Shown: positions 29,758 to 45,850 of the stretch, in pieces | Position numbering within the stretch: position 1 is the stretch's first letter | Layout: each line of letters starts with the position of its first letter | Assembly: GCA_050633245.1 (NCBI GenBank) | Contig: JBOEGD010000007.1 | Span: forward strand, 320,640-384,639 | Reading direction: 5' to 3' | Origin: Calditrichia bacterium | Lineage (GTDB): Bacteria > Calditrichota > Calditrichia > RBG-13-44-9 > J075 | DNA: 64,000 nucleotides | Program-made: the position numbers and the translations under genes | Notes under the pieces: model-generated | Told to the model about the DNA's origin: nothing | The model's input: the letters and a program-made list of their open reading frames with translations, nothing else | Databases searched by the model: none

Positions 29758-31263
29758 TCAGGTTTTCCCTTGTCCAATTTCTTTTAACTTTAGCTGCACC
29801 CATCGTACCGATACACCCAGCGATTTTGCTGTCAATGTTCTGTTGCCGTCAAATTGCTCGAGGCGATCTAACAGAAGCTGTCTTTCGAAGTCCTTTAGCG
29901 AGCCCTTAAACAGCTTCGCATTATCATTAACCGCATCATCCAATAGAATTTGATCCGGCATCAGTTTTTCCGTATCGCAAAGTATAAGCGCCCGCTGAAT
30001 GACGTTCTCGAGCTGGCGAACATTGCCGGGCCAGTGATAGTCGCGAAGTTTCTTGAGCGTCTCACGGTGGGCAATAACGGTCTTACTGGCATATTTTTGC
30101 ATAAAGTGCTTTACCAAAAGCGGGATATCTTCTTTTCGTTCGCGCAGCGGCGGAACATAAATCGGAAATACATTCAGGCGATAAAACAAATCTTCCCGAA
30201 AGTCACCTTTCTGCGCCATCTGACGAAGGTTCTTATTGGTAGCAGCGATAATGCGTACATTCACTTTGGTAACTTTGGTATCGCCAATTCGCATAATCTC
30301 CTGATTTTGCAACACCCGTAGTAGCTTGGCCTGTAGTGACAATGGAATATCGCCAATTTCATCAAGGAAGAAAACACCGTTATCAGCCACTTCAAACAAT
30401 CCTTTTTTGTCTCCGGTAGCGCCGGAGAAGGCTCCTTTACGATAACCAAAGAGCTCACTTTCCAGAAGCGTCTCCGGAATAGAGCCGCAGAATTGGGCAA
30501 GATATGGATTGTCCGATCGATCACTAAGAGTATGGATTGCGCGCGCCACCAGATCTTTTCCGGTACCGCTTTCGCCTAATATCAAGGCTGTCGCATCGGT
30601 AGGGGCCACACGGCGAATCATTGTAGCCAGCTGCTGCATTGCTTTCCCCTCGCCCACCATTCCAGGTATGCGCTGTTCATCTGCACCCAGCCGCGTCTTC
30701 AGCTGGCGATATTCGCGCTCCAGCTCCTCAAAGCGGACAATCTTATTCAGCGAAAGTGAAACCAGGTTGGAGAAAAAACGCAGAAACAGCAGATTTTCTT
30801 CGGTAAAGGCCTTTCGGTTTTCCTGACTATCAACAAGAATCACTCCCCAAACCTGCTGTTCGTAGAAAATCGGCACGCCGATTACAGATTTGATGTGATG
30901 AATCATTACGCTTTCAAATTGCGACAGGTTGGGATCGCTTTGCACATCGTGATAAAGACAGGGTTCCCTTTTATCAATTACTTCTTTGAGTATTCCGGAT
31001 GAAAAAGCCGAGAGGTCAATAATCTTCTCGCGATTAACGTTGCGAGCAGCAATAATCGAAAAATTGCTGTCATCGTCGGAATAGCGAACAAATAAACCTC
31101 GTTCGGCATTGACAATAGAGATAACAAGATCGAGTGATTCCTCGATTAAATTTTCTGTGTATTCAGCTCTATTAAGTAGCTGGGTGAGATAGTGCAGTAT
31201 TTCAAGTTGATCTTTGTCAATCTCATGAAATCGGGCAATAGAGTCTGGATTAATTGGCTGCAT
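29758..31263 (-). CDS. GAF-domain sigma54-dependent transcriptional activator (Fis-type HTH)
   Basis: N-terminal GAF, GESGTGK, ESELFGY.KGAFSGA, FLDEIG, FREDLFYRL, WPGNVRQLEN, C-terminal HTH. Confidence 0.93.
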   Translation of the reverse strand: MQPINPDSIARFHEIDKDQLEILHYLTQLLNRAEYTENLIEESLDLVISIVNAERGLFVRYSDDDSNFSIIAARNVNREKIIDLSAFSSGILKEVIDKREPCLYHDVQSDPNLSQFESVMIHHIKSVIGVPIFYEQQVWGVILVDSQENRKAFTEENLLFLRFFSNLVSLSLNKIVRFEELEREYRQLKTRLGADEQRIPGMVGEGKAMQQLATMIRRVAPTDATALILGESGTGKDLVARAIHTLSDRSDNPYLAQFCGSIPETLLESELFGYRKGAFSGATGDKKGLFEVADNGVFFLDEIGDIPLSLQAKLLRVLQNQEIMRIGDTKVTKVNVRIIAATNKNLRQMAQKGDFREDLFYRLNVFPIYVPPLRERKEDIPLLVKHFMQKYASKTVIAHRETLKKLRDYHWPGNVRQLENVIQRALILCDTEKLMPDQILLDDAVNDNAKLFKGSLKDFERQLLLDRLEQFDGNRTLTAKSLGVSVRWVQLKLKEIGQGKT

Positions 31264-32409: not shown

Positions 32410-34698
32410 CTAAGTAATTTTTTCTAATTCACCAAGCATAAACCTGAGAATCTGCCGGGCAATCGACCGCGCATTTTCTCCACTCTCCATTACCGGTCCA
32501 ATACATGATGGACATCCCTTTTCGCAGCCACAGCGTTCAAGTCGATCTAATGAGCCTCTAAGTGCAGGCTCAGGGTGATGATGCAGCTTGAAGGACAAGC
32601 CTATCCCACCGGGAAAACTATCGTAGATGTACAGCGATGGCTGCTTGGTAAACGGCGAACGAATCATCGGAACAACTCGAATATCGGAGGTATCGCACAT
32701 TATATAAACCGGGGCAATCGTTTGCAGAAGGTTTGCTACGCCCTGTAGACCCGCGCTGAACTCACTCGCTGTCACGTCCATATCGGCTGCTATGGTACCT
32801 GGCAATTCAAACCAGGCTGCACTTGTCGCCATATCGATCTCCGGCAAATGTACCTTTCCGGCACCAACGTTCTCGTGTGTAAAGAACTTGATTTTCTTAT
32901 AACCCGTTGTGGCGGTACTCACTTTTATATCGCCATAGACTAACTGCATTGTCGCGGACTGCAGCTGCTCGTCGGTGCTTAATATCTTGATGTCGGTTTT
33001 TGTAATCGCATCGGTAAAATAGTCTACAGCCACTTGCCTGACATAAGCCTTTTTGCGCTGCCAATCGAGGTTGTCGACGTGGAACTGCCTGCTTTGATGC
33101 ATATAAATGGCTTCTTTATAAACCAACATTTGCGCGCTAAAGAGATCGACCTCGCCGATTACGCGTTCCTGGTTCGTCGTATCAATAATAACAACATTAT
33201 CCGGAGATGCGCTGCGTAAACTCACCTCTTCAGCAGGATAAATTTCGCTCGTCCAATGATATTTACTTCCAGCCTTTTGCAGAACCTGCTGCTCGGCGAG
33301 ATAATCCAAAACCTCACGTGTTGAAACACCGCTGAACGTTTCATCTTCAGTAAATGGGATTTCAAAGGCTGCACATTTCACATGGCTCATAAGAATCAAC
33401 AGATTGTCCGGATCAACAATGCCATGCTCCGGGGACTGCTCGAAGAAATATTCCGGATGCTCCATTACATATTGATTGCCCGGCGAACTGCTGCCGACCA
33501 GAATTGCTAACGACGTATCGCTACGACGACCGGCACGGCCTGCCTGCTGCCAGCTACTGGCAATACTCCCCGGATATCCGGCCAGCACAGCGACGTCGAG
33601 CTGACCGATGTCAATTCCCAACTCAAGTGCATTGGTACTAATCACGCCCAGAATTTTACCAGAGCGAAGTCCTTCTTCAATCTCACGTCTTTCAAGAGGT
33701 AAATACCCGCCACGGTAGCCGCAAATCCGTTTTTCCGGAATTTTCAGACTGCGCGCCTGTTCTTTTAAATAGCGCGTAAGGATTTCTACGCGCATGCGAC
33801 TGCGTGTAAAGACAATCGTCTGCACCTGAGTTTCAAGCAAAAGCCGGGATACCCGGTTCACTTCACCCACAACTGAGCGGCGAATACCCAGCTCAGCATT
33901 AATAATCGGTGGATTATAAAAGATAAAGTGCTTTCTTCCCCGCGGAGCTCCGTTGCGATCTACCAGCTGAACCGGTTCGCCTATTATTCGTCCTGCCATC
34001 TCTGCCGGGTTTGCAATGGTGGCCGAACAGCAAATAAACTGCGGCTCACTTCCATAGAAACGAGCGATGCGCTTCAGGCGCCGAATGACATTGGCTAAAT
34101 GACTTCCAAAGACCCCGCGATAGGCGTGCACTTCATCGATGACAACATATTTCAGGTTTTCGAACAGCTTTAGCCAGATTGTGTGATGAGGCAATATGCC
34201 AGAATGAAGCATATCCGGGTTTGTCATTACAATATGGCCGGCACGTCGAATGGCTTTGCGAGCCGTTACGGGCGTATCGCCATCAAAAGTGTAGGTTTTA
34301 ATATCAATATCAAGAAAGGAAACGAGTTCATGAAGTCCATTATACTGATCATGTGACAAGGCCTTGGTAGGGAACAAATAAAGAGCACGCGACTCCTCGT
34401 CCTGCAATATCTGATGCAATACAGGAAGGTTATAGCCAAGTGTTTTACCAGACGCGGTTGGTGTGACCAGAACAATATTCTTACCATCAGAGGAATGCTG
34501 AAAGGCTTCAGCCTGATGTGAATACAACCGGTCGATTCCTTGCTCCTGTAGCGCTACAATCAACCGTTTATCCAGCTTAGCCGGAAAGTCGACATAATCG
34601 GCGCGTTTTTCCGGCAACACTTCCCAGTGCATCACATTGTCCATAAAGTCTGAACGCGTTTTCAAATAGTCCAAAAGTTGATCGAGATTCACGGGCAC
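32410..34698 (-). CDS. mrfA: DEAD/DEAH helicase with DUF1998 (MrfA/YprA/Hrq1 family)
   Basis: LYSHQ, TPTASGKT, DEVH, SAT, TNALELGID, QQAGRAGR, C-terminal C..CGC..GCPSC. Confidence 0.88.
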   Translation of the reverse strand: MPVNLDQLLDYLKTRSDFMDNVMHWEVLPEKRADYVDFPAKLDKRLIVALQEQGIDRLYSHQAEAFQHSSDGKNIVLVTPTASGKTLGYNLPVLHQILQDEESRALYLFPTKALSHDQYNGLHELVSFLDIDIKTYTFDGDTPVTARKAIRRAGHIVMTNPDMLHSGILPHHTIWLKLFENLKYVVIDEVHAYRGVFGSHLANVIRRLKRIARFYGSEPQFICCSATIANPAEMAGRIIGEPVQLVDRNGAPRGRKHFIFYNPPIINAELGIRRSVVGEVNRVSRLLLETQVQTIVFTRSRMRVEILTRYLKEQARSLKIPEKRICGYRGGYLPLERREIEEGLRSGKILGVISTNALELGIDIGQLDVAVLAGYPGSIASSWQQAGRAGRRSDTSLAILVGSSSPGNQYVMEHPEYFFEQSPEHGIVDPDNLLILMSHVKCAAFEIPFTEDETFSGVSTREVLDYLAEQQVLQKAGSKYHWTSEIYPAEEVSLRSASPDNVVIIDTTNQERVIGEVDLFSAQMLVYKEAIYMHQSRQFHVDNLDWQRKKAYVRQVAVDYFTDAITKTDIKILSTDEQLQSATMQLVYGDIKVSTATTGYKKIKFFTHENVGAGKVHLPEIDMATSAAWFELPGTIAADMDVTASEFSAGLQGVANLLQTIAPVYIMCDTSDIRVVPMIRSPFTKQPSLYIYDSFPGGIGLSFKLHHHPEPALRGSLDRLERCGCEKGCPSCIGPVMESGENARSIARQILRFMLGELEKIT

Positions 34699-34706
34699 TC
34701 TTACAA

Positions 34707-34783
34707 TTGATGAATTATGATTGATGAATTATGAATACACAGTTCTTAGTTCTAGAAGTGAAAAGTGAAAAGTGAAAAGTGAA
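34707..34783 (+). repeat. Intergenic tandem repeats (TTGATGAATTATGA)x2 and (AAGTGAA)x4
   Basis: Read directly. Confidence 0.85.
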
Positions 34784-34799
34784 AAGGCAATTTACATGA

Positions 34800-34821
34800 G
34801 CCTATGACGTTAGTCGTGGGT
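34800..34821. repeat. REP-like hairpin
   Basis: GCCTATGAC-GTTA-GTCGTGGGT; 19/22 identical to the reverse complement of 56452-56473. Confidence 0.65.
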
Positions 34822-35039
34822 GAATCAGGCAGTTCGACAATTCTCTTTCTCCCTTTCGCCCGCTCTCCCAGTCATTCTTTTATATCCTGACACCTGATGA
34901 AGATAGCGCACAAATGTTCACGTATCAATTAAAAAACTGACCGCGTGGAACTCATTAGCCGTAATTCAAAAAATCCCATTCATTTTATCAATTGAATAGC
35001 TTAATTTACTTCAACCCATTTAAACAAAGCGAGCCAATT

Positions 35040-35357
35040 ATGCAGTATTTCAGCAAAATCGCGGTCGTTCTGATACTTGCTTTTACCCTATTCGACTGTT
35101 CAAATTCTCTCGAGCCTGCAATCGGAACCATTGAATACATATTTATAGTTGATAGCGCAGCTCAAGTACGAATTGAAGTAGAGAATAGCTACGGAGCGCT
35201 TATCACAACACTTGTTGATACAGTCCTCCCGCAAGGAAGGCATTCTATAAGGTGGGAGCCGGATTCTCAGGTTTTATCGGGTATTTATATTATTAAAAGA
35301 TATGAGAATGATGTATTAATTGAATCCGTTCAAACTGCATTTTTCGGGAGGAATTAA
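35040..35357 (+). CDS. Small lipoprotein consisting of a single FlgD-Ig/CTD-like domain
   Basis: Lipobox LFDC; VRIEVENSYGALITTLVD..LPQGRHSIRW...SGIYII; ATG at 35040. Confidence 0.6.
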   Translation: MQYFSKIAVVLILAFTLFDCSNSLEPAIGTIEYIFIVDSAAQVRIEVENSYGALITTLVDTVLPQGRHSIRWEPDSQVLSGIYIIKRYENDVLIESVQTAFFGRN

Positions 35358-35359
35358 TA

Positions 35360-36016
35360 ATGCGACTTCTCCCACTGCTCATAATTTTTTTGCTTTCCGT
35401 ATGTTCACTGCATGCCCAGCAGTATTTTGGCATACAGACCTCCGTGCACCGCTTCTTTACCCATTCTGATAACGATTTGTTGATCACCGAGAATAACGAC
35501 TGGTCTGGTGGTATCGGATTTCAATTGTATTACCAACAGCCTCTCAGCCCGCGAATTCTTGCGCGTATTTCGATTGGGTATAGTCGCAGTGATATTGAAG
35601 AAGCACAGACATTTCAGGTAATTCAGGGCCTCACTCTCGCATATGATCTTGTAGTAGATAATGGTCTAAATCAGTTTCCGGCAGACTTTTCAGTTATGAC
35701 ACAACTATCAGAATGGCTGAATTTGGGCATTGGGCCAAGCTTGGCTTGGTCTGCTCGCAGCACAACATTCTATCAAGACGTCGGGGTAAATAGTCTGAGA
35801 TTAACAGACCGCCTTTCCGGACTTGGGTTTGGAGCACATGGGTTTCTGGAAGCGATGTTTGCTTTTAATGAAGACTCGCCAGTATATGTTTCAACTCAGG
35901 TGCGGCTACGCTATATGAGCGCACTTTGGTATCAGGAAAAAGGTCGCGAGCTGCGCAATTACGAGTTCAACTATCTCGAAGGCAGTTTTTTATTGGGGAT
36001 TGGATGGAAGTTGTAA
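35360..36016 (+). CDS. Outer-membrane beta-barrel protein (about 8 strands)
   Basis: Signal peptide, alternating aromatic strands, C-terminal GIGWKL. Confidence 0.7.
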   Translation: MRLLPLLIIFLLSVCSLHAQQYFGIQTSVHRFFTHSDNDLLITENNDWSGGIGFQLYYQQPLSPRILARISIGYSRSDIEEAQTFQVIQGLTLAYDLVVDNGLNQFPADFSVMTQLSEWLNLGIGPSLAWSARSTTFYQDVGVNSLRLTDRLSGLGFGAHGFLEAMFAFNEDSPVYVSTQVRLRYMSALWYQEKGRELRNYEFNYLEGSFLLGIGWKL

Positions 36017-36546
36017 ACAGACTCATCATTGGCTCAAAAAATCCGGTCAAAATTGAGGCCGTTCGCAGCGGCTTTGTTTCGCTTTTCCCCAACAAAAAAT
36101 GTGTAACTGAGGGAATAGTGGTAACCAGTGGTGTTGCTGATCAGCCGATGAGCGACGAGGAGACACTTCTTGGTGCAGAGAACAGGGCGAAAGCAGCGCA
36201 AAATGCTATTCCCGAAGCCGACTTCTGGTTCGGTGTCGAAGGCGGCATTGCAGAGATGGAAGACGAGCTTAGCGTCTTTGCATGGATAGTTGCCCTTGCT
36301 AAATCTGGTAAAAAAGGCCGTGGGCGAACCGCAACATTTTTTCTTCCACCACCGGTTGCTTCTCTCGTCCGGCGGGGTATTGAACTGGGTGATGCGGATG
36401 ATCAAGTCTACGGAACCAGTAACTCCAAGCAAAACAATGGTGCTGCCGGCTTGTTAAGCGGTAATGTAATTACGCGAACAACCTTATATGAACCGGCCGT
36501 AGTAATGGCACTATTTCCATTTCGAAACGCAAATTTATATCCGTAG
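36004..36546 (+). CDS. yjjX: Inosine/xanthosine triphosphatase
   Basis: GSKNPVK, SGVADQP, ETLLGAENRA, GVEGG, ELG, KQNNGA.G.L; start refined to ATG 36004. Confidence 0.88.
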   Translation: MEVVNRLIIGSKNPVKIEAVRSGFVSLFPNKKCVTEGIVVTSGVADQPMSDEETLLGAENRAKAAQNAIPEADFWFGVEGGIAEMEDELSVFAWIVALAKSGKKGRGRTATFFLPPPVASLVRRGIELGDADDQVYGTSNSKQNNGAAGLLSGNVITRTTLYEPAVVMALFPFRNANLYP

Positions 36547-36612
36547 TAGCAGCCGCAATGCACTGCGTCTCAACAGGCATTGCGGCTAAACAACCCCAAA
36601 TAAGAGCACACA

Positions 36613-37545
36613 ATGAGAAACGTTCAGCATAAGAAAGAAGCCTACTGGTTTTACCGGGTTTTGTCCATTTTTTACGATAAATACGTGAATCCCTTCTTCT
36701 GGACAGAAGGAATGCGCAACGAAGCACTGGCGCTTGGCGACTTTAACTCGCGCGAGTTAACGGTAGCTGATGTCGGTTCAGGTACCGGGTTTACCACTCA
36801 GGGCATTTCTAAATATGTAGATGCGTCAAACATCTCCTGCCTGGATCAAAGCCCCCACCAAATGGCATATGCCAAAGCACGTCCGGAGCTACAACAGTCG
36901 CATTTTCAGGTTGGAGACGCAGAAGATCTGCCATTTGAGACCGATCACTTCGATCGCTACGTTTCTGCCGGCAGTATTGAATACTGGCCTGAGCCACTTC
37001 GTGGAATAGCCGAGTCGTATCGTATAATCAAGCCGGACGGAAAAGCACTAATGATCGGTCCGCTACGCCCACGCAACTGGTTTGCCCGACTAATGGCCGA
37101 CACTTGGATGCTCTTTCCGGAGGAAGAAGAATATATAAAGTGGTATGAAGAGGCCGGATTTGTTGATATTAAAAAAGTGAACACTGCTCCGAAATGGGTG
37201 TTTAAAGAAAAGTATGCCGTTGCGTTGGTCGGCACTAAACCAAAAAGCGGCGATTCACCTGCGAACTTGCCAGAGAAAAAAATTGAAGATGTAGCCGCGA
37301 AGATGACCTTCAACAGACGCATCAGCTTCGTTTGGCATTTACTAATCGGCAATCTTGCCGGATTTATGTTTATCCCAATGGCAGTTGTCGGATATGCAAA
37401 CTATGGCCTTCGCAAACTATTCGGTCGTATTCCCGAGAAGAAAAAAGCAGTACTAAACGATCGGTTGACGGTTCACCAGCGTGTCAGTCTTGCAACCATC
37501 GTTTTAATGGCCGTTGCAGCGGCTTGGTTGGCGATGGCAGCCTAA
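36613..37545 (+). CDS. MPBQ/MSBQ methyltransferase, plant VTE3 type
   Basis: QHKKEAYWFYR.LS..YD, WTE.MR, DVG.GTGFTT, LDQSPHQ, GDAEDLPF, DRYVSAGSIEYWP, WMLFP.EEEYI.W, GDSP; matches recalled plant VTE3 motifs; C-terminal TM. Confidence 0.88.
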   Translation: MRNVQHKKEAYWFYRVLSIFYDKYVNPFFWTEGMRNEALALGDFNSRELTVADVGSGTGFTTQGISKYVDASNISCLDQSPHQMAYAKARPELQQSHFQVGDAEDLPFETDHFDRYVSAGSIEYWPEPLRGIAESYRIIKPDGKALMIGPLRPRNWFARLMADTWMLFPEEEEYIKWYEEAGFVDIKKVNTAPKWVFKEKYAVALVGTKPKSGDSPANLPEKKIEDVAAKMTFNRRISFVWHLLIGNLAGFMFIPMAVVGYANYGLRKLFGRIPEKKKAVLNDRLTVHQRVSLATIVLMAVAAAWLAMAA

Positions 37546-37567
37546 GGCAATGAGGCAATGAGGCAAT
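37545..37567 (+). repeat. (AGGCAATG)x3 tandem repeat
   Basis: Read directly. Confidence 0.8.
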
Positions 37568-37674
37568 TTACTTCCGCTCGCCCGTTCTCCCACTCACCCA
37601 CTCTGTTGTTTCTATGCTCTGTGTTCTGTTGTTAATTCATAAATAATCACTCATAATTCATCAATATAGATTTC

Positions 37675-38514
37675 ATGTCTGAACTTAAAGATAGAATCAA
37701 ACAATTTTACGATGCTTCTACCCCGCTCTGGGAACGCACCTGGGGAGAACATATGCATCACGGCTATTATGGTGCAGACGGCACAGCTAAAAAAGATCAT
37801 CAAGTTGCTCAGGTCGATCTGATTGAAGAGCTGCTTCGCTGGGGAGACATCGGATCGCCAAAAAAGATTCTGGATATCGGCTGTGGCGTGGGTGGAAGCA
37901 GTATTCATCTTGCACAAAAGTATTCTGCCTCAGCAGATGGCATGACGCTAAGCCCGGTGCAGGCGCAACGTGGAAATGCGCGGGCGAAAGAGCTTCATAT
38001 TCAAGATCGAGTAGCTATTCATGTAGCCGATGCACTGAAACCTCCGTTTGCCGATAACAGCTTCGATTTAGCTTGGTCCTGTGAAAGTGGTGAACACATG
38101 CCCGATAAACGCTTGTTCCTACGAGCGGCTTATAACAAGTTAAAACCAGGCGGCCATTTTCTTATGGCAACCTGGTGCCATCGCGTCGAGCCACCGGAGT
38201 TGACGAAGAAAGAACGCCGCTTTCTGCTGGACATGTGCGATGCCTATCATCTTCCCTATATAATCTCGAATCCGGAGTATGCGCGCCTCACCATAGAAGA
38301 AGGATTTGAGGACATCAGAACAGAAGATTGGACAAAAGCCGTAGCGCCTTTTTGGCCTGCTGTGGTAAAATCGGCACTCAGCGTAAACAGCCTAATCGGA
38401 CTCGCGAAAGCAGGTTGGCCGACAATTCGCGGTGCCCTTGCAATGCGTTACATGATGCGTGGTTATAAGTCTGGACTTATTCGCTTTGGCGTGCTGCGGG
38501 CGGTAAAGCCATGA
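37675..38514 (+). CDS. Gamma-tocopherol methyltransferase (VTE4-like)
   Basis: I..FYD.S..LWE..WGEHMHHGYYG, LDIGCGVGGS, TLSPVQ, ESGEHMPDK, ATWCHR, DWT..VAPFWPAV. Confidence 0.88.
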   Translation: MSELKDRIKQFYDASTPLWERTWGEHMHHGYYGADGTAKKDHQVAQVDLIEELLRWGDIGSPKKILDIGCGVGGSSIHLAQKYSASADGMTLSPVQAQRGNARAKELHIQDRVAIHVADALKPPFADNSFDLAWSCESGEHMPDKRLFLRAAYNKLKPGGHFLMATWCHRVEPPELTKKERRFLLDMCDAYHLPYIISNPEYARLTIEEGFEDIRTEDWTKAVAPFWPAVVKSALSVNSLIGLAKAGWPTIRGALAMRYMMRGYKSGLIRFGVLRAVKP

Positions 38515-39407
38515 ACTTTCTAAGCGCACTTTGGCAGTTCGCCCGCCCGCATACAATCGTTGGTACCACATTAAGCGTGAGCGGTTTATTCGTTATTGCA
38601 ATGGCACATGCCAATAGCGGTATTGTCTTATGGCAGGAGTGGTTGATTACCCTTGTCAGCTGCCTTGGAGCAAACGTCTATATCGTTGGCTTAAATCAAC
38701 TTACCGACATCGAGATTGATCGAATAAACAAGCCCAACTTACCACTGGCCTCTGGTGCGATGTCTGAACGCACCGGGTGGAGTGTCATTCTAATATGCCT
38801 GTTCATCTCGCTTCTTGGCGCCTTTATCGGTGGCTACTACCTTCTGCTTACCGTTTTGATAAGTCTTTTTATCGGGACCGCGTACTCGCTGCCACCCATT
38901 CGCCTGAAGCGATTTCACTTTTGGGCGGCGGCCTGCATTTTCACCGTTCGCGGCGTTATCGTAAACCTTTTTCTTTTTCTACACTTTCACTTTCTCTACA
39001 GCAACAACTCTATCATTCCACTTCATGTATGGATTTTAACGGCATTCGTTTTCGGTCTAAGCCTGGTTATTGCCTGGTTTAAAGACATTCCGGATATGGA
39101 AGGTGATAGTCGCTTTCGCATTATCACGCTTAGCCTGCGATTGGGTGCACAGCGCGTTTTTCAGCTTGGCCTCGGCTTGCTTACCGTTTGCTACCTTGGT
39201 ATGGCTCTCACTGGAGCTTTAGGGCTGCCCGGAGTAAACGATACCGTTCTGATCATCTCGCACCTGGCCCTGCTGGCCTCCGCATGGATTGTCGGCAGAA
39301 AAGTTGACCCGACTGATCAGCAGACCATTACCCGCTTCTATCTGTTTGTGTGGGTACTATTTTTCGCAGAGTACCTGGTTTTTCCATTGGCCTGTGTTTT
39401 GGAATAG
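38511..39407 (+). CDS. Homogentisate phytyl/prenyltransferase (VTE2/HPT, UbiA superfamily)
   Basis: F.RPHTIVGT, NVYIVGLNQLTDIEIDRINKP.LPLASG, YSLPP.RLKRF, KDIPDMEGD, FY.F.W.LF..EY; ATGA overlap with upstream gene. Confidence 0.9.
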   Translation: MNFLSALWQFARPHTIVGTTLSVSGLFVIAMAHANSGIVLWQEWLITLVSCLGANVYIVGLNQLTDIEIDRINKPNLPLASGAMSERTGWSVILICLFISLLGAFIGGYYLLLTVLISLFIGTAYSLPPIRLKRFHFWAAACIFTVRGVIVNLFLFLHFHFLYSNNSIIPLHVWILTAFVFGLSLVIAWFKDIPDMEGDSRFRIITLSLRLGAQRVFQLGLGLLTVCYLGMALTGALGLPGVNDTVLIISHLALLASAWIVGRKVDPTDQQTITRFYLFVWVLFFAEYLVFPLACVLE

Positions 39408-39665
39408 TGTTCCAGATTGATTAATGATGATTTATGAGTGATGAGGGGTCATGGCGAATTGAAGGATTTCCCGTCTGTCCTTCAGCAAGAGTTTCATCAA
39501 TTAGCGTTAGTCAACTAGCGGTAACTTATCCAATTCTGTCTCCTGACCTCTTTTTAATCATCAATCACAATTCATTTATGCACATTTCCCCCTTTTTAAC
39601 TGGGAGAAAATGCCCGCCGATTATATATTGGACTTCGATAATCATTCACTTTTTATGAGGGATCT

Positions 39666-42452
39666 ATGGGACGCTGGGATAAGCTCAATATAAAGCCTGA
39701 AGGCACCGGGATAAGCCCCGAACTATCGTCACAAATAAATTTACTTGGCTCTTTGCTTGGCGAGGCAATCACAGAAACACTTGGTGAAGAACGACTAGGC
39801 CAAATAGAAGAACTACGACTGCTCTGCAAAAAAGCTTACAAGAAAGGCAGCGGGAAAAATCGCGATAAGGCGAATGAAATCATTCAGGGTATGAACCTTG
39901 ATGAGCTGCTTTGGCTATTGCGTTCCTACACTGCCTTTTTCCATCTTGTAAACAAGGCCGAGCAGCAGGAGATAATCCGCCAAAACCGCACGCGCGAACA
40001 GGCTTCCTCGGCTCAGAAGCCGCGTGCAGAATCGATTGCCGAAAGCATTGCTCTGTTAAAAAAGCAGGGCTATAGTCTGGAAGCCGTACTAAACGTGCTC
40101 TCCAATTTGCGAATCGAACCAACGCTCACTGCTCATCCCACAGAAGCCAGACGCGAAAGCGTGCTTTTTAAGCAACAAAACATTGCCAATTGCCTCAGCG
40201 AACTACAAAACGACTCGCTGACCGATCGTGAGCGCGAACAGCTTATCAACAACATTTATCAGGAAATCATGCTACTGCTGACCACCGATGAAACGCGTGT
40301 CGAACGGCTTACCGTAACTGATGAAGTTGGACAGGGACTTTTCTTTTTTAGCGGCACCATTTGGGAAATCATTCCTCGCATTTACGAGGATTTACAGCGA
40401 GCAATTGAAACGTATTATGGAGAGACTCCGGACTTACCGGTTGTCTTGCGCTATCGCTCCTGGATAGGTGGCGATCAGGATGGTAATCCATTCGTCACCC
40501 CCGATGTAAATCGCGAAACCCTGCGCAGACATCGCCTGACTGCATTAAATCAATTTCTGGAAGAGATGCATCGTCTGAGACAGGAACTAAGTATTTCCTC
40601 ACGCTTGCTTCCGGCACCTAAACGACTGTTGAAGTCTATCGAGAAGGACGCTGAAACTATTGCGATTGCACCCGACATTCTGCGGCTCTTCTCTTATGAG
40701 CCCTATCGTTTAAAGCTACTCTATATGCGCGAAAAGCTTCGTGAGCTGATTGCCGCAGAAGATGAACAACGTGACCCGAGAATTGGCTATACCAGTAAAA
40801 ACTACATCGCTGAGCTTGAACTAATTCGAGACTGTCTGGTTCAAAACGGACTGCCCAATCTTGCAAAGAACCCGCACCTCAACAACCTATTGCTTCGGGC
40901 AAAGACGTTTGGTTTCCACATTGCTGCACTTGATTTTCGTCAACACAGCAAAGTGCATGAGGAATCGGTAGCAGAGATTCTAAAGCTGGCTGGTGTCTGT
41001 AAAGATTATACCACTCGCCCGGAAGAGGAACGAATCGCACTATTGGAAAAAGAGTTGCGCAATCCACGACCATTAACATTTCCTAACAGTGGTTTGTCTG
41101 AACAAACGGCCACAACGCTGGACACATTAAAGCTGATTAATGGAGCCATTCAAAAAGATCCCGATGCCATTGGCTGCTACATTATCAGCATGACCCACGA
41201 TGTTAGTGACATGCTTGAAGTGATGCTTCTGGCAAAGGAAATGGGACTATGGTCTTATGCTAACGGCCGCGTAAAAACGCAGCTTGAAATCGTGCCATTG
41301 CTCGAAACAATTGATGATCTGAGTCGAATTGCACCATTAATGGAAACGATTTTCGAGCATCCGATTTGCCGGGCACAGATTAAACGCCACAAAGATTTTC
41401 AGGAAATCATGCTCGGTTATTCAGACAGCAATAAAGACGGTGGCTACTGGATGGCCAATTGGGCGCTTTATAAGGGGCAGGATGACCTTGCAAAAGTTTG
41501 TCGTGCTCACAATATCGACTTCCGAATGTTTCATGGTCGTGGTGGTAGCGTTGGCCGTGGTGGTGGACGCGCTAATCGCGCGATTCTCTCATTACCGGCA
41601 GTCAGCTACACCGGTGGTATTCGATTTACCGAGCAGGGCGAAGTCATTACATTTCGCTACGCGCTTCCGGATATCGCCCATCGCCATTTGGAACAGATTA
41701 TTAATGCGATGATTCAAGCTGAAGCACGCGGAACAGAAGCACCCAAGCTGGTGCGCAAAAGCCCGCAGGCGGTGTTCGATTTGCTGACAGAAATTGCAGA
41801 CACTTCCATGGAAGCTTATTTAAAGCTGATTAAGGATCTGGAATTCTGGAAGTGGTATATTGAAATTACACCGATTGAGCATATTAGCAGACTTCCCATT
41901 GCCTCTCGACCGGTATCACGTAAGGCCGCAGACAGCGTAGACTTTGAAGGTCTGCGCGCTATTCCCTGGGTCTTTGCCTGGACGCAAACCCGTTATAATC
42001 TACCAGGTTGGTACGGCACTGGCATCGCGCTTGAAAAAGCCGTTAAAGATGAAAAAAAGCTTAAAATGCTAAAGAAGCTGTATAAAGACTGGGCCTTCTT
42101 CCAAACCGTAGTAGACAATGCTCAGCTTGAAATGCGGCGCGTACATTTAATTGCCGCAAAATACTACGACAGTCTTTCCAAAAACAGCTACCATAAAACA
42201 GTCGTAAAAGATTTCAATAAGGCCACCACCGCCCTGCTTCTGATTACTGGTCAGAATGACATTCTTGATAATGCGCCGGTTTTGCAAAAATCCATTGATT
42301 TGCGCAACCCATATACCGACGTACTGAATTTGCTGCAGGTTGAACTGCTGCGTCGTTGGCATTCGGCGCGCCCGGCACAGAAGGAAAAACTTGGACAAGC
42401 GCTGTTTCTGAGTATTAATGGTGTTTCGGCAGCGATGCAGTCAACCGGCTAG
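39666..42452 (+). CDS. ppc: Phosphoenolpyruvate carboxylase
   Basis: LTAHPTE, SWIGGD.DGNP, MLGYSDSNKDGG, FHGRGGSVGRGGG, LRAIPWVFAWTQ, MQSTG end. Confidence 0.97.
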   Translation: MGRWDKLNIKPEGTGISPELSSQINLLGSLLGEAITETLGEERLGQIEELRLLCKKAYKKGSGKNRDKANEIIQGMNLDELLWLLRSYTAFFHLVNKAEQQEIIRQNRTREQASSAQKPRAESIAESIALLKKQGYSLEAVLNVLSNLRIEPTLTAHPTEARRESVLFKQQNIANCLSELQNDSLTDREREQLINNIYQEIMLLLTTDETRVERLTVTDEVGQGLFFFSGTIWEIIPRIYEDLQRAIETYYGETPDLPVVLRYRSWIGGDQDGNPFVTPDVNRETLRRHRLTALNQFLEEMHRLRQELSISSRLLPAPKRLLKSIEKDAETIAIAPDILRLFSYEPYRLKLLYMREKLRELIAAEDEQRDPRIGYTSKNYIAELELIRDCLVQNGLPNLAKNPHLNNLLLRAKTFGFHIAALDFRQHSKVHEESVAEILKLAGVCKDYTTRPEEERIALLEKELRNPRPLTFPNSGLSEQTATTLDTLKLINGAIQKDPDAIGCYIISMTHDVSDMLEVMLLAKEMGLWSYANGRVKTQLEIVPLLETIDDLSRIAPLMETIFEHPICRAQIKRHKDFQEIMLGYSDSNKDGGYWMANWALYKGQDDLAKVCRAHNIDFRMFHGRGGSVGRGGGRANRAILSLPAVSYTGGIRFTEQGEVITFRYALPDIAHRHLEQIINAMIQAEARGTEAPKLVRKSPQAVFDLLTEIADTSMEAYLKLIKDLEFWKWYIEITPIEHISRLPIASRPVSRKAADSVDFEGLRAIPWVFAWTQTRYNLPGWYGTGIALEKAVKDEKKLKMLKKLYKDWAFFQTVVDNAQLEMRRVHLIAAKYYDSLSKNSYHKTVVKDFNKATTALLLITGQNDILDNAPVLQKSIDLRNPYTDVLNLLQVELLRRWHSARPAQKEKLGQALFLSINGVSAAMQSTG

Positions 42453-42712: not shown

Positions 42713-45700
42713 ATGCGATTCATTATCGGCCTATTTATTGTTACATCATTTGCTTTTGCACAAGGTAGCTCACAGAACGTCACGTTGAAGCGAACCTTTA
42801 CCAGTCATGAATTCGGTGGTATGGTCGCTTTCGGTGATTTTGTAGTTGCAGATGCACAAAATGAAGTTTACGGCGATGATTTGAAAGCTGCCCGCGGCTA
42901 TAAGGTTCATCCGTTGTCCAATGCATACGAGGTTAGCCCACGGATCTACTGGAGCGAGAGCAGCTGGTATGGCGCAATAGGGTATGTCGATAATAGTTTA
43001 TTTTATATTGCAAACTCGCGTATTCCCGGCTCAGAAACGACACTCGAAATTTTTACTGTCAGCGATAATGGTGTATCCTCTCTAGGGCGGAGCAATATTG
43101 GATCCTATGCATTCCCAGACTATATCGGAGCGGCCCCAGACCTAAATGCCCTTTTTCTGTCTAAGGGACAGACAACAATTTATGTATATGATATCACGAG
43201 CAGAACAAATCCGGTATATCTTGATTTAACAGTTCCAACGGGTAATCCAATTTATGAAACAACCACATATAATGGACACATTTTTTGCAGTACCACGAAC
43301 GGCATCGGTGTGTTCGAGATAAATCCAGCTGATCCAACACAGCTCACCGCTAAAACTCCAATTTCAATCACCGGAAGTCAACCTAAAATAGCCCGGGTAA
43401 ACGAAAAGCTCTATGTGGCATCACTGAATCAACTGAGGGTTTTCGACATATCCAACCCGGAGATGGTAGCATTAATCGGGTCATGGTCTTCATCGACATC
43501 AAACATTAATGATCTGGCTGTCAATGATGTGAACGAGCTTCTGCACGTTCAGCTTGGAAATCGTATAACCGTATTGGATGTTGCAGATCCGAATGCAATC
43601 AACGAGATAGGGCACTATCAATTTTCGACACCGCCATTTCAGATTGAAGCTTCCGGAGATGCTATTTATGCTCTTCATAACACGACGCTCAGTATATTGG
43701 AGTACACTGGCAATCAAGATGTCGTTCTTGCTCTGACTCCGACAAACCTTATCTTTGAGCAAATGGTTGGAGGAATCCCAATTAAAAAATCCGTTGTTAT
43801 TCGCAACAATGGAACCTCCCAGGCAGACATCCTCAGCTTGACAAGTTCATCTCAAACATTTTCTGTAAACGATACAACCCTAACGTTGAATCCTGGTGAG
43901 AGCGTGGTCAGAGAGGTGACATTTTATCCTGGACCATCGGTTAGCGGTCATACGGGACGGATAAATATCTATCACAACGGGGTTACATCTTCAGAGATTC
44001 TTCAATTACAAGCCCAAACCTTTCCAGACGAGTTTTCAATCTCTGTGTCTTCTCTCTGGTTAGAAGCTGCCCCAATCGGAGGATCTACCCAATCGTTCTT
44101 TTCTCTCTTTAACTCATCCTTGCAATATTCCATGCAGGTTGATAGCTATACACGAACTCATCCTTACTACTCTGGCCCATCTCTGTCAAATTATCCACTT
44201 GCTCCAAATGAAAATACGCTGCTTGACTTTACTTTTGCTCCGCTAACACCCGGTTATCACACTGATACTGTTACGGTACATTATCACGGGAAGACGAAAG
44301 CTATTCAAGTTACCGGGCATGCATATGGCCCATATGTTGAGCTTGCAACCGATACGCTGAAAATAGAGAGAACACAGCTTGGAAGCGTAGGGGAAAAAAC
44401 AGCCTTCCTGAAAAACACCGGTACGCAAGATGTAAACATAACGTTTATCGGGCAACCGGATGCACCTTTCAACGTTAGTTTGGACTCTATGAATATTCGT
44501 CCCGGAGACTCCCTGAGGATTCAGGTCAGCTTCTCCCCAACCCAAACAGGTTTTTATCATGATACTATGCTTCTCAGACATAATGCATTCACTTCTCCGA
44601 ACATTATTCATTTGACCGGCGAGGGTGTCTTTGGCAACGCGTCCAATATGGTATTGCTGGGCGGACGGGATACGCCCGGAAGTACGGAAGGGTTGACGCT
44701 GAACGATCGGATGGTTTTTTTAGCCGACAGCGGTAACGGTATTGTCGCGATGAACATAGCTGATCCACAAAACATTAGCGTAACCAGTGAGCTGCCGATT
44801 TTAGAGCGGTTACATCGAATTGAAACTATCGGCAACGTTGGTTACGCTGTAGCAGAAAACGGGTTCTTTTATACGCTAAACCTGGCAGACACTGCAGCAA
44901 TAGCACTGTATGACGATCTACCTCTTCCCGGCACGCCGAATGATATTGCACTACAGGGTCTATATGCGTACGTCTCTGCTGGCACTGAAGGTCTACGCAT
45001 CGTCAATATTGCTGATCCGGGCAATCCGTTTCAGCTTTCCTTTCTCAATTTACCTGGCTTTGCTTCCGGTGTAGCCGTTGAGGGTAATTATGCCTTCGTT
45101 GCATGCGGAGATAGCGGTTTGCAGGTAGTCGATGTTTCAAACCTGTTTAGTCCATTTGTAGCAGCAAGCTTGCCGGTCACCGGCAGCGCGAATGAGCTAC
45201 TTCTTGAGGGTGATCGTCTTTTTGTTTCGCTGACAAATGCAGGCGTGCAGGAAGTCAATGTAACTGACCCGCTGCAGCCACAGGCACAGCGTTTGATTGA
45301 TTCAGTTGGAGAATCTGTTGACCTCGCTACAAGCGGAGACACGCTTTATGTGGCCGCACTGGCAGACGGTGTGCGCGTTCACGATCTGTCGCAGAGCAAT
45401 GCCCCTGAGATCGCCTTCTACGAACTACCCGGAGACGTCTACTCAATTGAAGCTCGCTCAGACACTGTTTACGTGGCTGCCGGTAATTCCGGGCTCTTCG
45501 TATTACGCTTAGGTGTTGGGCCTGTCGGAACCGGAGAAGAGACACCGATAACAATCAACCAATTTGCATTACAGCAGAATTATCCGAATCCGTTCAATCC
45601 GGAAACGCGCATTACCTTCGACCTGCCGCAGCGCAGTAATGTTGAGCTGATCGTGTATGATTTACTGGGAAGAGAAGTTCAGACGCTAAAAAGCGAATCC

Positions 45701-45850
45701 CTTCCTGCCGGACACCATCAGGCAACCTGGAACGGACGCGACAACTCCGGCAAGCCACAAAGCAGCGGAGTGTATGTCTATCAGCTACAGTATGAAACGG
45801 CCGATGGTCAGCGGGGCATGCTTAGCGAGAAGATGATCATGATCAAATGA
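42713..45850 (+). CDS. Secreted protein: two LVIVD-repeat propellers flanking three ASH/choice-of-anchor-D-like Ig domains, plus CTD
   Basis: GL.IV(N/D)I.DP..P and YAYV repeats, I.N.GT..L Ig motifs, NYPNPFNP tail. Confidence 0.8.
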   Translation: MRFIIGLFIVTSFAFAQGSSQNVTLKRTFTSHEFGGMVAFGDFVVADAQNEVYGDDLKAARGYKVHPLSNAYEVSPRIYWSESSWYGAIGYVDNSLFYIANSRIPGSETTLEIFTVSDNGVSSLGRSNIGSYAFPDYIGAAPDLNALFLSKGQTTIYVYDITSRTNPVYLDLTVPTGNPIYETTTYNGHIFCSTTNGIGVFEINPADPTQLTAKTPISITGSQPKIARVNEKLYVASLNQLRVFDISNPEMVALIGSWSSSTSNINDLAVNDVNELLHVQLGNRITVLDVADPNAINEIGHYQFSTPPFQIEASGDAIYALHNTTLSILEYTGNQDVVLALTPTNLIFEQMVGGIPIKKSVVIRNNGTSQADILSLTSSSQTFSVNDTTLTLNPGESVVREVTFYPGPSVSGHTGRINIYHNGVTSSEILQLQAQTFPDEFSISVSSLWLEAAPIGGSTQSFFSLFNSSLQYSMQVDSYTRTHPYYSGPSLSNYPLAPNENTLLDFTFAPLTPGYHTDTVTVHYHGKTKAIQVTGHAYGPYVELATDTLKIERTQLGSVGEKTAFLKNTGTQDVNITFIGQPDAPFNVSLDSMNIRPGDSLRIQVSFSPTQTGFYHDTMLLRHNAFTSPNIIHLTGEGVFGNASNMVLLGGRDTPGSTEGLTLNDRMVFLADSGNGIVAMNIADPQNISVTSELPILERLHRIETIGNVGYAVAENGFFYTLNLADTAAIALYDDLPLPGTPNDIALQGLYAYVSAGTEGLRIVNIADPGNPFQLSFLNLPGFASGVAVEGNYAFVACGDSGLQVVDVSNLFSPFVAASLPVTGSANELLLEGDRLFVSLTNAGVQEVNVTDPLQPQAQRLIDSVGESVDLATSGDTLYVAALADGVRVHDLSQSNAPEIAFYELPGDVYSIEARSDTVYVAAGNSGLFVLRLGVGPVGTGEETPITINQFALQQNYPNPFNPETRITFDLPQRSNVELIVYDLLGREVQTLKSESLPAGHHQATWNGRDNSGKPQSSGVYVYQLQYETADGQRGMLSEKMIMIK

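Follow-up and report, generated by a model that had tools for sequence, protein, structure and literature searches.

An open reading frame at 36613..37545 on the plus strand of the window (the whole stretch of 64,000 nucleotides that was analysed, from a Calditrichia bacterium) probably encodes a membrane-anchored C-methyltransferase of the VTE3 family, which would belong to a tocochromanol operon of a non-photosynthetic bacterium and to a widespread bacterial branch of the family. Judged from sequence, its likeliest role would be the C-3 methylation of a prenyl-methyl-benzoquinol en route to a tocochromanol. VTE3 is to our knowledge the sole enzyme of the plant pathway that has not been traced to cyanobacteria. 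Cheng et al. are said to have found VTE3-like genes outside the eukaryotes in only two archaea in 2003. That two-archaea view is superseded by the large bacterial sister family predicted here.

Sequence features and family assignment

The ORF starts with ATG and its predicted product of 310 aa is a VTE3-type (MPBQ/MSBQ-type) SAM-dependent C-methyltransferase. Generic class I SAM-methyltransferase domains of Pfam are found at residues 47–150. SAM-binding motif I, VADVGSGTGF, is located at residues 51–60 (36763..36792, plus strand), and V54, G55, G57, T58, G59 and F60 are invariant in an alignment of 11 bacterial, eukaryotic and archaeal-type homologues. The motifs QHKKEAYWFYR, LDQSPHQ, DRYVSAGSIEYWP, WMLFPEEEEYIKW and GTKPKSGDSP can all be found and match VTE3 of plants, glaucophytes and red and green algae in the alignment. 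At the N-terminus there is no space for a transit peptide, since the stop-to-stop frame comprises only 313 codons; in the alignment residue 69 of Musa VTE3 pairs with residue 2 of the bacterial protein. A Kyte-Doolittle scan called two hydrophobic segments towards the C-terminus. The first one, residues 240–262 (37330..37398, plus strand), aligns with the single anchor of plant, red-algal and glaucophyte VTE3 and is the predicted counterpart of the plant membrane anchor. The second, terminal one, residues 289–310 (37477..37542, plus strand; mean hydropathy 2.24), occurs only in bacterial homologues of the type found in the Fibrobacterota-Chlorobiota-Bacteroidota (FCB) group. It was seen in loci L004, L005 and L013 and is missing in L016, L051, L075, L045 and the eukaryotic proteins; Calditrichaceae, Rhodothermales and Bacteroidota homologues have it in common, while actinomycete, cyanobacterial and eukaryotic ones lack it. 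An earlier note on this DNA had claimed the VTE3 motifs, the missing transit peptide, the C-terminal anchor and an extra terminal helix, and all four were borne out.

Searches with the predicted protein pointed to the same family. The Musa protein named '2-methyl-6-phytyl-1,4-hydroquinone methyltransferase 1, chloroplastic' (P0123) is identical at 126 of 262 positions (48%, E 9e-80), and phmmer gave 50–53% identity to representatives from Riccia, Adiantum and Musa. Of 1.84 billion library representatives just 79 were matched at E<=1e-30 versus 6518 at E<=1e-3. By these measures the likeness to plant VTE3 far exceeds chance. Two plant proteins are among the 120 best matches, the JGI name 'MPBQ/MSBQ methyltransferase' is carried by 14 of the 120 bacterial relatives listed, and the UniRef names of the plant relatives follow the PROSITE profile for MPBQ/MBSQ SAM-binding methyltransferases. 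Neither Pfam nor NCBIfam holds a VTE3-specific model, and the ORF matches generic methyltransferase models only. A sequence search of the PDB returned no close solved relative, the top match being the generic methyltransferase 3l8d (E 4.7e-12).

We assign the predicted protein to the plant-type VTE3 or MPBQ-MSBQ methyltransferase family, whose features of full-length similarity, placement in the VTE3 clade and C-terminal anchor were all found. Features of the eukaryotic (plastid) subclade, namely a transit peptide and an insertion with the motif HGL[IV][MI]G, are absent. With plant and algal VTE3 (Arabidopsis At3g63410; Musa, Oryza, Lolium, Gracilariopsis, Porphyridium) the protein shares 48–53% identity over the catalytic domain, the signature motifs and the aligned anchor, and the bacterium also encodes its usual partners in the pathway (HPT, gamma-TMT, cyclase and HPPD). 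It differs from them by the lack of the transit peptide and of the five-residue insertion, by its second terminal helix and by being encoded in an operon.

Operon partners and proposed pathway

In the window the VTE3-type gene is followed by a gene for a gamma-tocopherol-methyltransferase-like (gamma-TMT-like) protein and by one for a homogentisate phytyltransferase (HPT). The former (37675..38514, plus strand) encodes a predicted SAM methyltransferase of 279 aa with Pfam methyltransferase and CMAS domains, which is 55–58% identical to cyanobacterial proteins. Among its 120 listed matches the JGI name 'tocopherol O-methyltransferase' occurs 19 times and 'MPBQ/MSBQ' not once; one is named 'gamma-tocopherol methyltransferase [Calothrix parasitica]'. 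The closest clusters in the Atlas bear the name Tocopherol O-methyltransferase, which we take as a lead only. The Sll0418-type enzyme is the cyanobacterial MPBQ/MSBQ methyltransferase and a paralogue of gamma-TMT. It presumably catalyzes the same reaction at the same position of the pathway as the VTE3-type protein, although it belongs to a different methyltransferase lineage; the operon's own member of that lineage is the product of 37675–38514, whose relatives are named gamma-TMT. Gamma-TMT is preferred over the Sll0418 type by database names, and we call the protein gamma-TMT-like. The third gene (38511..39407, plus strand) encodes a predicted UbiA prenyltransferase of 298 aa with several hydrophobic segments, scoring 402.3 bits against the homogentisate phytyltransferase equivalog model NF009525 (cut-off 226) and 139 bits against Pfam UbiA. 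Its start at 38511 overlaps by four bases with the stop of the gamma-TMT-like gene at 38514. The mixture of one plant-type and two cyanobacterial/plant-type enzymes that the earlier note had described is thus seen again in these scores and identities. The three genes form a predicted operon and would be co-transcribed. A promoter and terminator scan of 34600–39800 was uninformative, with 7 and 6 sites compared to 8.6 and 5.5 expected. A look-up of sequencing runs for this stretch listed no RNA run, and four runs contained just 0.06–0.08 of the sampled words.

Further genes of the pathway are located elsewhere in the genome. HPPD was detected with 441 bits (cut-off 277). Its gene adjoins one with a homogentisate-dioxygenase N-terminal domain, a catabolic context, and so the supply of homogentisate to a tocochromanol pathway is something we infer. 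An unlinked ORF of the tocopherol cyclase family scored 69–76 bits (cut-off 26.6) and contains the motif GYIEKDWG, its match covering only profile positions 131–335 of the Pfam model. Cyclase-like proteins of no known function have already been described in heterotrophic bacteria, according to the cited portion of PMC4963081. Two genes of the geranylgeranyl reductase family lie above the cut-off. All five tocochromanol-pathway families (HPPD, HPT, the VTE3-type ORF, the cyclase family and the gamma-TMT-like protein) are encoded in the genome. Photo_RC and PsaA/PsaB gave no match in this genome, which is 97% complete, and the host bacterium is predicted to be non-photosynthetic.

By analogy with the pathway known from plants and cyanobacteria, the following steps may be proposed. 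Homogentisate would be formed by HPPD, and HPT would couple it to phytyl- or geranylgeranyl-diphosphate to produce 2-methyl-6-prenyl-1,4-benzoquinol, whose prenyl chain may be phytyl, geranylgeranyl or longer. The VTE3-type protein would add the C-3 methyl group to yield the 2,3-dimethyl form, and the unlinked cyclase-family protein would close the chromanol ring. The last methyl group would come from the gamma-TMT-like enzyme, leading to an alpha-type tocopherol or tocotrienol as a membrane antioxidant.

Distribution among bacteria and nature of the product

Syntenic relatives were found in Calditrichaceae, Rhodothermales, Bacteroidota, Latescibacterota, Myxococcaceae and Actinomycetota. VTE3-type genes appear to form a widespread but patchily distributed bacterial branch in at least six non-cyanobacterial groups. 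The suggestion that this particular lineage is a special candidate for the donor of plant VTE3 is not upheld by so broad a bacterial family. That cyanobacteria lack the VTE3 type, as the earlier note had presupposed, applies to most sampled genomes, yet 4 of 401 carry such a gene. At 80 related bacterial loci, many of them cut by contig ends, HPT is a same-locus partner in 64, a gamma-TMT-like gene in 48 and a cyclase in 6. These six loci, with the cyclase within or beside the operon, come from four bacterial groups. In Latescibacterota (L016) all five genes are consecutive in the order HPPD-cyclase-VTE3-gTMT-HPT, and in Myxococcaceae (L024) the order is HPT-gTMT-cyclase-VTE3. In the other carrier genomes tested both cyclase and HPPD were above their cut-offs in five out of five, including those of two cultured bacteria, Neolewinella lacunae KCTC 42187 and Phaeodactylibacter luteus KCTC 42180, and one Solirubrobacteraceae MAG; the cyclase model was above its cut-off in none of 14 control genomes. 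In both cultured strains VTE3, gTMT and HPT are consecutive in the order VTE3-gTMT-HPT.

The same C-3 methylation could also serve a product that is never cyclized, i.e. a dimethyl-prenyl-benzoquinol or quinone acting as electron carrier or antioxidant, with no tocochromanol being made. We regard such a plastoquinone-like product as unlikely. Plant VTE3 also yields plastoquinol from MSBQ, as stated in the cited part of PMC5789312. In Actinomycetota all 25 loci are without a gamma-TMT-like gene and 24 of them consist of the bare VTE3->HPT pair. In the Calditrichia genome the cyclase lies outside the operon, and tblastn at E<=1 across the window revealed no cyclase remnant. Against this, the gamma-TMT-type enzyme is here predicted to be translationally coupled to HPT, and known gamma-TMT substrates are chromanols. 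The cyclase accompanies the operon in the six loci above and occurs in every tested carrier, the Solirubrobacteraceae MAG included, and HPT scores well above the phytyltransferase equivalog cut-off. A tocochromanol product is the reading we prefer.

Reviews, in the parts cited here, limit tocochromanol synthesis to photosynthetic organisms with the exception of Plasmodium and colourless algae (PMC5745509; PMC5789312). A search of the main texts of the open-access literature returned no published account of a bacterial VTE3 branch or of tocochromanols in these taxa. The conserved operon together with unlinked cyclase and HPPD genes occurs in heterotrophs, some of them cultured; if the proposed pathway is true, vitamin E synthesis would extend to non-phototrophs and be open to a simple lipid test. 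The bacterial enzymes may also serve microbial vitamin E production, since they are operon-encoded and come without a transit peptide.

Phylogeny and relation to eukaryotic and archaeal-type homologues

Maximum-likelihood trees had been suggested as a check in the earlier note. After a quick tree, P0160 (a very long row, 5.81), P0143 (a fusion), P0304 (a duplicate) and P0002 (near-identical) were dropped from the careful trees, and 16 more rows were pruned for speed to obtain a 61-row tree. The frameshifted high-GC representatives P0136, P0152, P0187, P0229, P0254, P0256 and P0257 were left out of the trees. In both careful trees a branch with support of 100/99 separates bacterial and eukaryotic VTE3 from five outgroup rows of short archaeal-type homologues. 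The eukaryotic proteins form a single clade (96/93 to 100/100), and the ORF at 36613..37545 is located inside the VTE3 clade and outside the eukaryotic one. Of all relatives known so far, the bacterial branch is predicted to stand nearest to the one clade of eukaryotic VTE3. A five-residue insertion carrying the HGL[IV][MI]G motif is present in 31/31 eukaryotic rows and in 0/41 bacterial rows, 0/5 outgroup rows and 0/80 bacterial loci; as it is missing in both bacteria and outgroup, the bacteria share the outgroup state.

The deeper order is less clear. The 61-row tree shows the bacteria as clades paraphyletic to the eukaryotes and groups the latter with the FCB clade at 91/54, whereas in one tree the bacteria form one clade that is sister to the eukaryotes (67/34). 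Constraining eukaryotes and FCB to a clade cost 0.05 lnL (p-AU 0.499), and no constrained topology fell below p 0.05 in the AU tests. An AU test with LG+F+G4 on '-fast' constrained trees gave p values of 0.148–0.46, which are weak evidence because the fast unconstrained tree lies 29.6 lnL below that of the full search. For the order among the eukaryotes, the FCB clade and the clade of Actinomycetota, cyanobacteria and Myxococcota, and likewise for the direction of the ancient transfer, several alternatives are compatible with the AU tests (all p > 0.05).

The earlier note had offered two roles for this lineage, a relative of the donor of plant VTE3 or a recipient from an alga. In the second case the bacterial genes would derive from algal VTE3 by transfer from eukaryote to bacterium, which appears improbable. 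The eukaryotes form one clade, the insertion is shared by all of their rows and by none of the 80 bacterial loci, the 61-row tree has the bacteria paraphyletic to them, and the genes are located in bacterial operons, the chromosomes that carry them reaching 8.9 Mb. While this disfavours algal receipt, it falls short of rejection: forcing the bacteria inside the eukaryotes together with glaucophytes and reds cost 16.1 lnL (p-AU 0.071), forcing them there together with greens and chromists 26.7 lnL (p-AU 0.115), and the corresponding fast LG+F+G4 trees gave p values of 0.148 and 0.168. A stem alga as donor would likewise be consistent with the single bacterial clade at 67/34.

On the donor side a wider reading is possible, although we hold it only tentatively. 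Heterotrophs of at least six phyla would make vitamin E (alpha-type tocopherol or tocotrienol) by an operon with the plant configuration, i.e. a VTE3-type methyltransferase with HPT, cyclase and gamma-TMT of cyanobacterial type, and the ancestor of the Archaeplastida would have taken VTE3 from such a non-cyanobacterial bacterium, replacing the Sll0418-type enzyme of the endosymbiont. If this is true, the grouping of eukaryotes with FCB that one tree showed at 91/54 would indicate a donor from the FCB group. With a large bacterial sister family to compare, the origin of VTE3 becomes a tractable phylogenetic problem for plastid evolution.

A relation to menaquinone methylation was weighed as well. 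The protein could be a MenG-like demethylmenaquinone methyltransferase, whose likeness to VTE3 would then be uninformative on tocopherol. Haloferax HVO_0309 is 44% identical to Arabidopsis VTE3 and is listed as menG in the cited part of PMC8305020, and so annotation does not limit the VTE3 family to benzoquinol substrates. JGI names one cluster of 228-aa homologues demethylmenaquinone methyltransferase, and the ORF has a weak match of 34 bits to Pfam Ubie_methyltran. The short archaeal-type homologues (HVO_0309; P0170, P0172 and P0188, 205–228 aa), the latter three inferred to be archaeal from Atlas cluster taxa and composition rather than from their names, share 40–44% identity and the motifs xxKxxAxxFYR and SAGSIEYWP with the protein. 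However, they are about 100 residues shorter, lack the C-terminal part with the anchor, are annotated as menaquinone methyltransferases and are set apart by the 100/99 branch. With UbiE/MenG the protein shares the fold of class I SAM-dependent quinone C-methyltransferases, but it scores only 49.7–52.3 bits against the MenG_MenH_UbiE model TIGR01934 (cut-off 158.35) and 40.7 bits against NF001244 (cut-off 216). The genome has a separate true MenG at G000:C11:367831-368508 with 254.9 bits against TIGR01934, and the HPT synteny at 64 of the 80 loci likewise argues against a MenG function, which we consider very improbable. The protein groups with VTE3 and not with UbiE/MenG or a generic archaeal group; a grouping with either of the latter was the outcome that the earlier note had named as speaking against its VTE3 affinity.

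Contamination by algal or plant DNA or a chimeric assembly, which the high identity to plant proteins and the two plant proteins among the 120 best matches might suggest, has a negligible chance of being the explanation, given that the GC content of the 2-kb bin 36001–38000, which holds most of the gene, is 0.477 compared to 0.433–0.479 in adjacent bins, that transit peptide and eukaryotic insertion are both missing, that bacterial genes flank it and the two genes downstream share a 4-bp overlap, that the identical gene order recurs in dozens of independent bacterial assemblies, and that 11 of 15 further genomes of the family carry the gene.

A VTE3-type protein and its neighbours

For the protein encoded by the ORF at 36613-37545 (+ strand, 310 aa, ATG start) Pfam reports generic class I SAM-methyltransferase domains only, and no NCBIfam model reached its cut-off (MenG_MenH_UbiE 52.3 bits vs 158.35). 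Alignment with VTE3 of Musa, named '2-methyl-6-phytyl-1,4-hydroquinone methyltransferase 1, chloroplastic', gave 126 identical residues out of 262 (48%, E 9e-80); bacterial residue 2 pairs with plant residue 69, and the alignment extends into the C-terminal hydrophobic region. We then aligned 11 sequences: the ORF and liverwort, red-algal, glaucophyte, green-algal, other algal, bacterial and short archaeal-type homologues. Forty-one columns are invariant. The earlier note had recognized a plant-type VTE3 from its motifs, and every motif it quoted is present in this alignment; the observation was borne out in all particulars. As it had also stated, there is no transit peptide, because the stop-to-stop frame comprises only 313 codons. 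Hydropathy confirmed the C-terminal anchor and the extra terminal helix as segments at residues 240-262 and 289-310. The first is the counterpart of the plant VTE3 anchor, whereas the second is an addition of the bacterial protein, common to the homologues from Calditrichaceae, Rhodothermales and Bacteroidota only. Eukaryotic VTE3 is marked by a transit peptide and a 5-residue insertion, and the ORF has neither. Since it agrees with the VTE3 family in all sequence-based tests but lacks both defining features of the eukaryotic subclade, it is, judged by its sequence, a bacterial member of the family rather than a plant gene residing in a bacterium.

A gamma-tocopherol methyltransferase (gamma-TMT)-like ORF (37675-38514, +, 279 aa) starts 129 bp after the VTE3-type ORF and overlaps by 4 bases with an ORF of the homogentisate phytyltransferase (HPT) type (38511-39407, +, 298 aa). 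The proposed cluster with cyanobacterial/plant-type partners was thereby substantiated: the HPT-type ORF scores 402.3 bits with the equivalog model NF009525 (cut-off 226), and the gamma-TMT-like ORF shows 55-58% identity with proteins from many cyanobacteria. Among the best 120 relatives listed for the latter, 19 carry the JGI label 'tocopherol O-methyltransferase' and none the label MPBQ/MSBQ methyltransferase; one of the matches listed is labelled 'gamma-tocopherol methyltransferase [Calothrix parasitica]'. Atlas look-alikes point the same way, as a lead only. GC content of the cluster region is in line with that of neighbouring stretches.

An inosine/xanthosine triphosphatase gene (35926-36546, +; NF003459 178.6 bits, Pfam NTPase_I-T) lies 67 bp 5' of the VTE3-type gene. 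It was not found by tblastn beside the operon in related loci and is therefore probably not an operon member. Downstream, a 928-aa ORF (39666-42452) follows 259 bp after the HPT-type ORF. A further protein (42713-45850, +, 1045 aa) has LVIVD repeats, HYDIN/ASH-type Ig-like domains and a C-terminal FlgD_ig-like domain; its tail is presumably akin to the C-terminal sorting domains known from the type IX secretion system of the Fibrobacterota-Chlorobiota-Bacteroidota (FCB) group. Inspected by eye, the translations of two ORFs upstream of the cluster on the opposite strand suggest a sigma-54-dependent response regulator (29758-31263, -, 501 aa) and a DEAD/DEAH-box helicase (32410-34698, -, 762 aa).

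Bacterial relatives and pathway complement

A large protein search with the VTE3-type ORF returned 2067 matches. The best 120 are nearly all bacterial with 50-62% identity, plus one at 85%, and include two plant proteins; named among them are Calditrichaeota, Rhodothermales and Bacteroidota (Saprospiraceae, Lewinellaceae, Phaeodactylibacter, Chitinophagales). Database labels already exist: 14 of these 120 carry the automatic JGI label 'MPBQ/MSBQ methyltransferase', and an Atlas cluster, mostly Actinomycetota, is called '2-methyl-6-solanyl-1,4-benzoquinone methyltransferase family'. A scan of species genomes yielded 98 relatives; we retained 80 loci, from Calditrichaceae, Rhodothermales, many Bacteroidota, Latescibacterota, Myxococcaceae, Actinomycetota (25 loci; Solirubrobacterales, Thermoleophilaceae and others) and one 'Cyanobacteria bacterium'. 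Three stem from isolates, not MAGs: Neolewinella lacunae KCTC 42187, Phaeodactylibacter luteus KCTC 42180 and Lewinellaceae bacterium SD302. In the phylum to which the window belongs, the gene is unevenly distributed, with 13 carriers among 86 species genomes: it is found in the window's own genome, in 11 of 15 others of its family, in 1 of 10 of a second family and in 0 of 60 elsewhere.

Gene order around the VTE3-type gene is conserved. Partners in the same locus are HPT in 64, a gamma-TMT-like gene in 48, tocopherol cyclase in 6 and HPPD in 1 of the 80 loci, many of which stop at contig borders. The order is HPPD-cyclase-VTE3-gTMT-HPT in a Latescibacterota locus (L016) and HPT-gTMT-cyclase-VTE3 in a Myxococcaceae locus (L024). 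In actinomycete loci VTE3 is directly followed by HPT (24 of 25), and a gamma-TMT-like gene occurs in none of the 25. The VTE3-type proteins of Actinomycetota loci L051, L053 and L055-L083 are shorter (265-279 aa) with a single anchor.

The window's genome (6.35 Mb, 59 contigs, 97% complete) encodes HPPD (441 bits, cut-off 277), two genes of the geranylgeranyl-reductase family above cut-off, a separate canonical MenG (254.9 bits) and, on another contig, a tocopherol-cyclase-family ORF (69-76 bits, cut-off 26.6). The latter reads GYIEKDWG at the site of the motif YxEKNWG, which phototroph cyclases carry according to passages of a 2016 note (PMC4963081). Neither Photo_RC nor PsaA/PsaB was found in this genome. 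As the pathway families are present and these reaction-centre proteins were not found, the organism is very probably non-phototrophic and equipped with all five tocochromanol-pathway enzyme families. The ORF immediately 3' of HPPD (386 aa) matches the N-terminal domain of homogentisate 1,2-dioxygenase (45 bits; locus L002, G000:C7:58216-62280). Through this tyrosine-catabolic arrangement, breakdown of homogentisate would compete with its use by the prenyltransferase.

Cyclase-family and HPPD genes both exceeded the cut-off in 5 of 5 other carrier genomes, including the type strains of Neolewinella lacunae and Phaeodactylibacter luteus and a Solirubrobacteraceae MAG, which has both elsewhere in its genome despite a bare VTE3-HPT locus. 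The cyclase cut-off was passed by 0 of 14 control genomes. Heterotrophic bacteria of many phyla carry complete, often operon-encoded sets of predicted tocochromanol genes.

Proposed role and prior knowledge

The VTE3-type ORF would act as a membrane-anchored C-3 methyltransferase on the HPT product 2-methyl-6-prenyl-benzoquinol; the methylated product would pass through cyclase and gamma-TMT to an alpha-type tocochromanol. Family membership, operon partners and the pathway complement of the genome make this the most likely role. Every catalytic step is modelled on the plant and cyanobacterial pathway as outlined in sections of PMC5789312. A phytyl chain is possible, since two geranylgeranyl-reductase genes are present. 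A rival reading, in which the end product is plastoquinone-like and non-cyclised, draws on the actinomycete loci where VTE3 and HPT stand as a bare pair, and on the unlinked cyclase in the window's genome. The separate MenG and the synteny of the VTE3-type gene with HPT speak against a MenG-like role, which the annotation of the haloarchaeal relative HVO_0309 suggests (44% identical to At3g63410 in an excerpt of PMC8305020). Contamination as the source of the ORF is excluded for practical purposes.

Among prokaryotes, VTE3-like genes were reportedly known from two archaea only at the time of Cheng et al. 2003. A full-text search covering main texts and few subscription journals found no paper describing a VTE3-type gene or a tocopherol operon from any of these heterotrophs. 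The nearest works, each as far as the retrieved portions go, are the 2016 note, which mentions functionally uncharacterized cyclase-like proteins of heterotrophs (PMC4963081), a preprint that sought plastoquinone genes, VTE3 included, in Heimdallarchaeota, and a study of colourless algae (PMC11528492); in those of a 2026 vitamin E review non-photosynthetic bacteria appear only as engineered hosts (PMC13084219). Beyond the single gene, the part worth following is the pattern of tocochromanol gene sets across heterotrophs with cultured representatives.

Phylogeny and the eukaryotic insertion

Eukaryotic sequences were named by looking up clusters and by a second search with a red-algal-type protein as query, and comprise land plants, Chara, Closterium, ten chlorophytes, four red algae, two glaucophyte-type and several algal-type sequences. 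In the main tree (LG+C20 PMSF, 75 rows) the ORF falls with VTE3 and not with short archaeal-type homologues, as the earlier note had expected: a 100/99 branch joins all bacterial and eukaryotic VTE3-type sequences against five short or distant homologues. A single clade (96/93) holds eukaryotic VTE3. The protein from the window clusters with Rhodothermales, Calditrichaceae and Latescibacterota (85/90), adjoining Bacteroidota (100/98), and a third group unites Myxococcaceae, a cyanobacterial sequence and Actinomycetota (88/89). A grouping of all bacteria reaches only 67/34, and a tree that forces eukaryotes and the FCB clade together is 0.05 lnL worse (p-AU 0.499). These sequences allow more than one branching order of the three groups.

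The rule that cyanobacteria use another, Sll0418-type enzyme holds for nearly all of them, though not absolutely, because 4 of 401 sampled genomes of the phylum carry the VTE3 type (67-71% mutual identity). These copies are L045 776-1594 (= L102), L103, L104 and L105, the last with two in-frame stops. The L045 MAG (G086) encodes PsaA (1300 bits), PsaB (1154 bits) and HPT (490 bits); a Photo_RC search of it gave no match. In a second tree (61 rows, two cyanobacterial sequences added) eukaryotes are supported at 100/100, eukaryotes plus FCB at 91/54, and the three cyanobacteria cluster together (100/98), with Actinomycetota as their sister group (94/87). The rare cyanobacterial copies thus stand beside Actinomycetota and not with eukaryotes in the best tree. 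Forcing eukaryotes with cyanobacteria (dlnL 16.5, p-AU 0.070), bacteria with glaucophytes/reds (16.1, 0.071) or bacteria with greens/chromists (26.7, 0.115) was worse than the best tree in each case, and none of the three was rejected at 0.05. An LG+F+G4 AU test on fast constrained trees is uninformative because the fast free tree itself lies 29.6 lnL below the best.

All 31 eukaryotic rows have the insertion (motif [HF]GL[IV][MI]G), as do 118 of 118 scanned relatives of the red-algal-type query among 120 matches listed. The remaining two, plant proteins P0003 and P0025, have it too; they were counted with the bacterial query, among whose listed matches they alone carry it. It is absent from all 41 bacterial rows, 5 outgroup rows and 80 bacterial loci, so the bacteria are like the outgroup in this character. 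None of the bacterial sequences has the appearance of a recent acquisition from algae. The earlier note had considered such lineages as possible relatives of the donor of plant VTE3 or as recipients from an alga. This interpretation stood in part: true family membership and a plant-configured pathway are supported, but the window's lineage has no privileged relation to plant VTE3, and transfer between bacteria and eukaryotes may have run in either direction.

Two algal-type fusions examined with Pfam, P0129 (680 aa) and P0139 (750 aa), each join a VTE3-type and a gamma-TMT-like methyltransferase. Another algal-type protein, P0143 (1197 aa), combines VTE3-type methyltransferase, UbiA prenyltransferase and polyprenyl synthetase domains in one chain.
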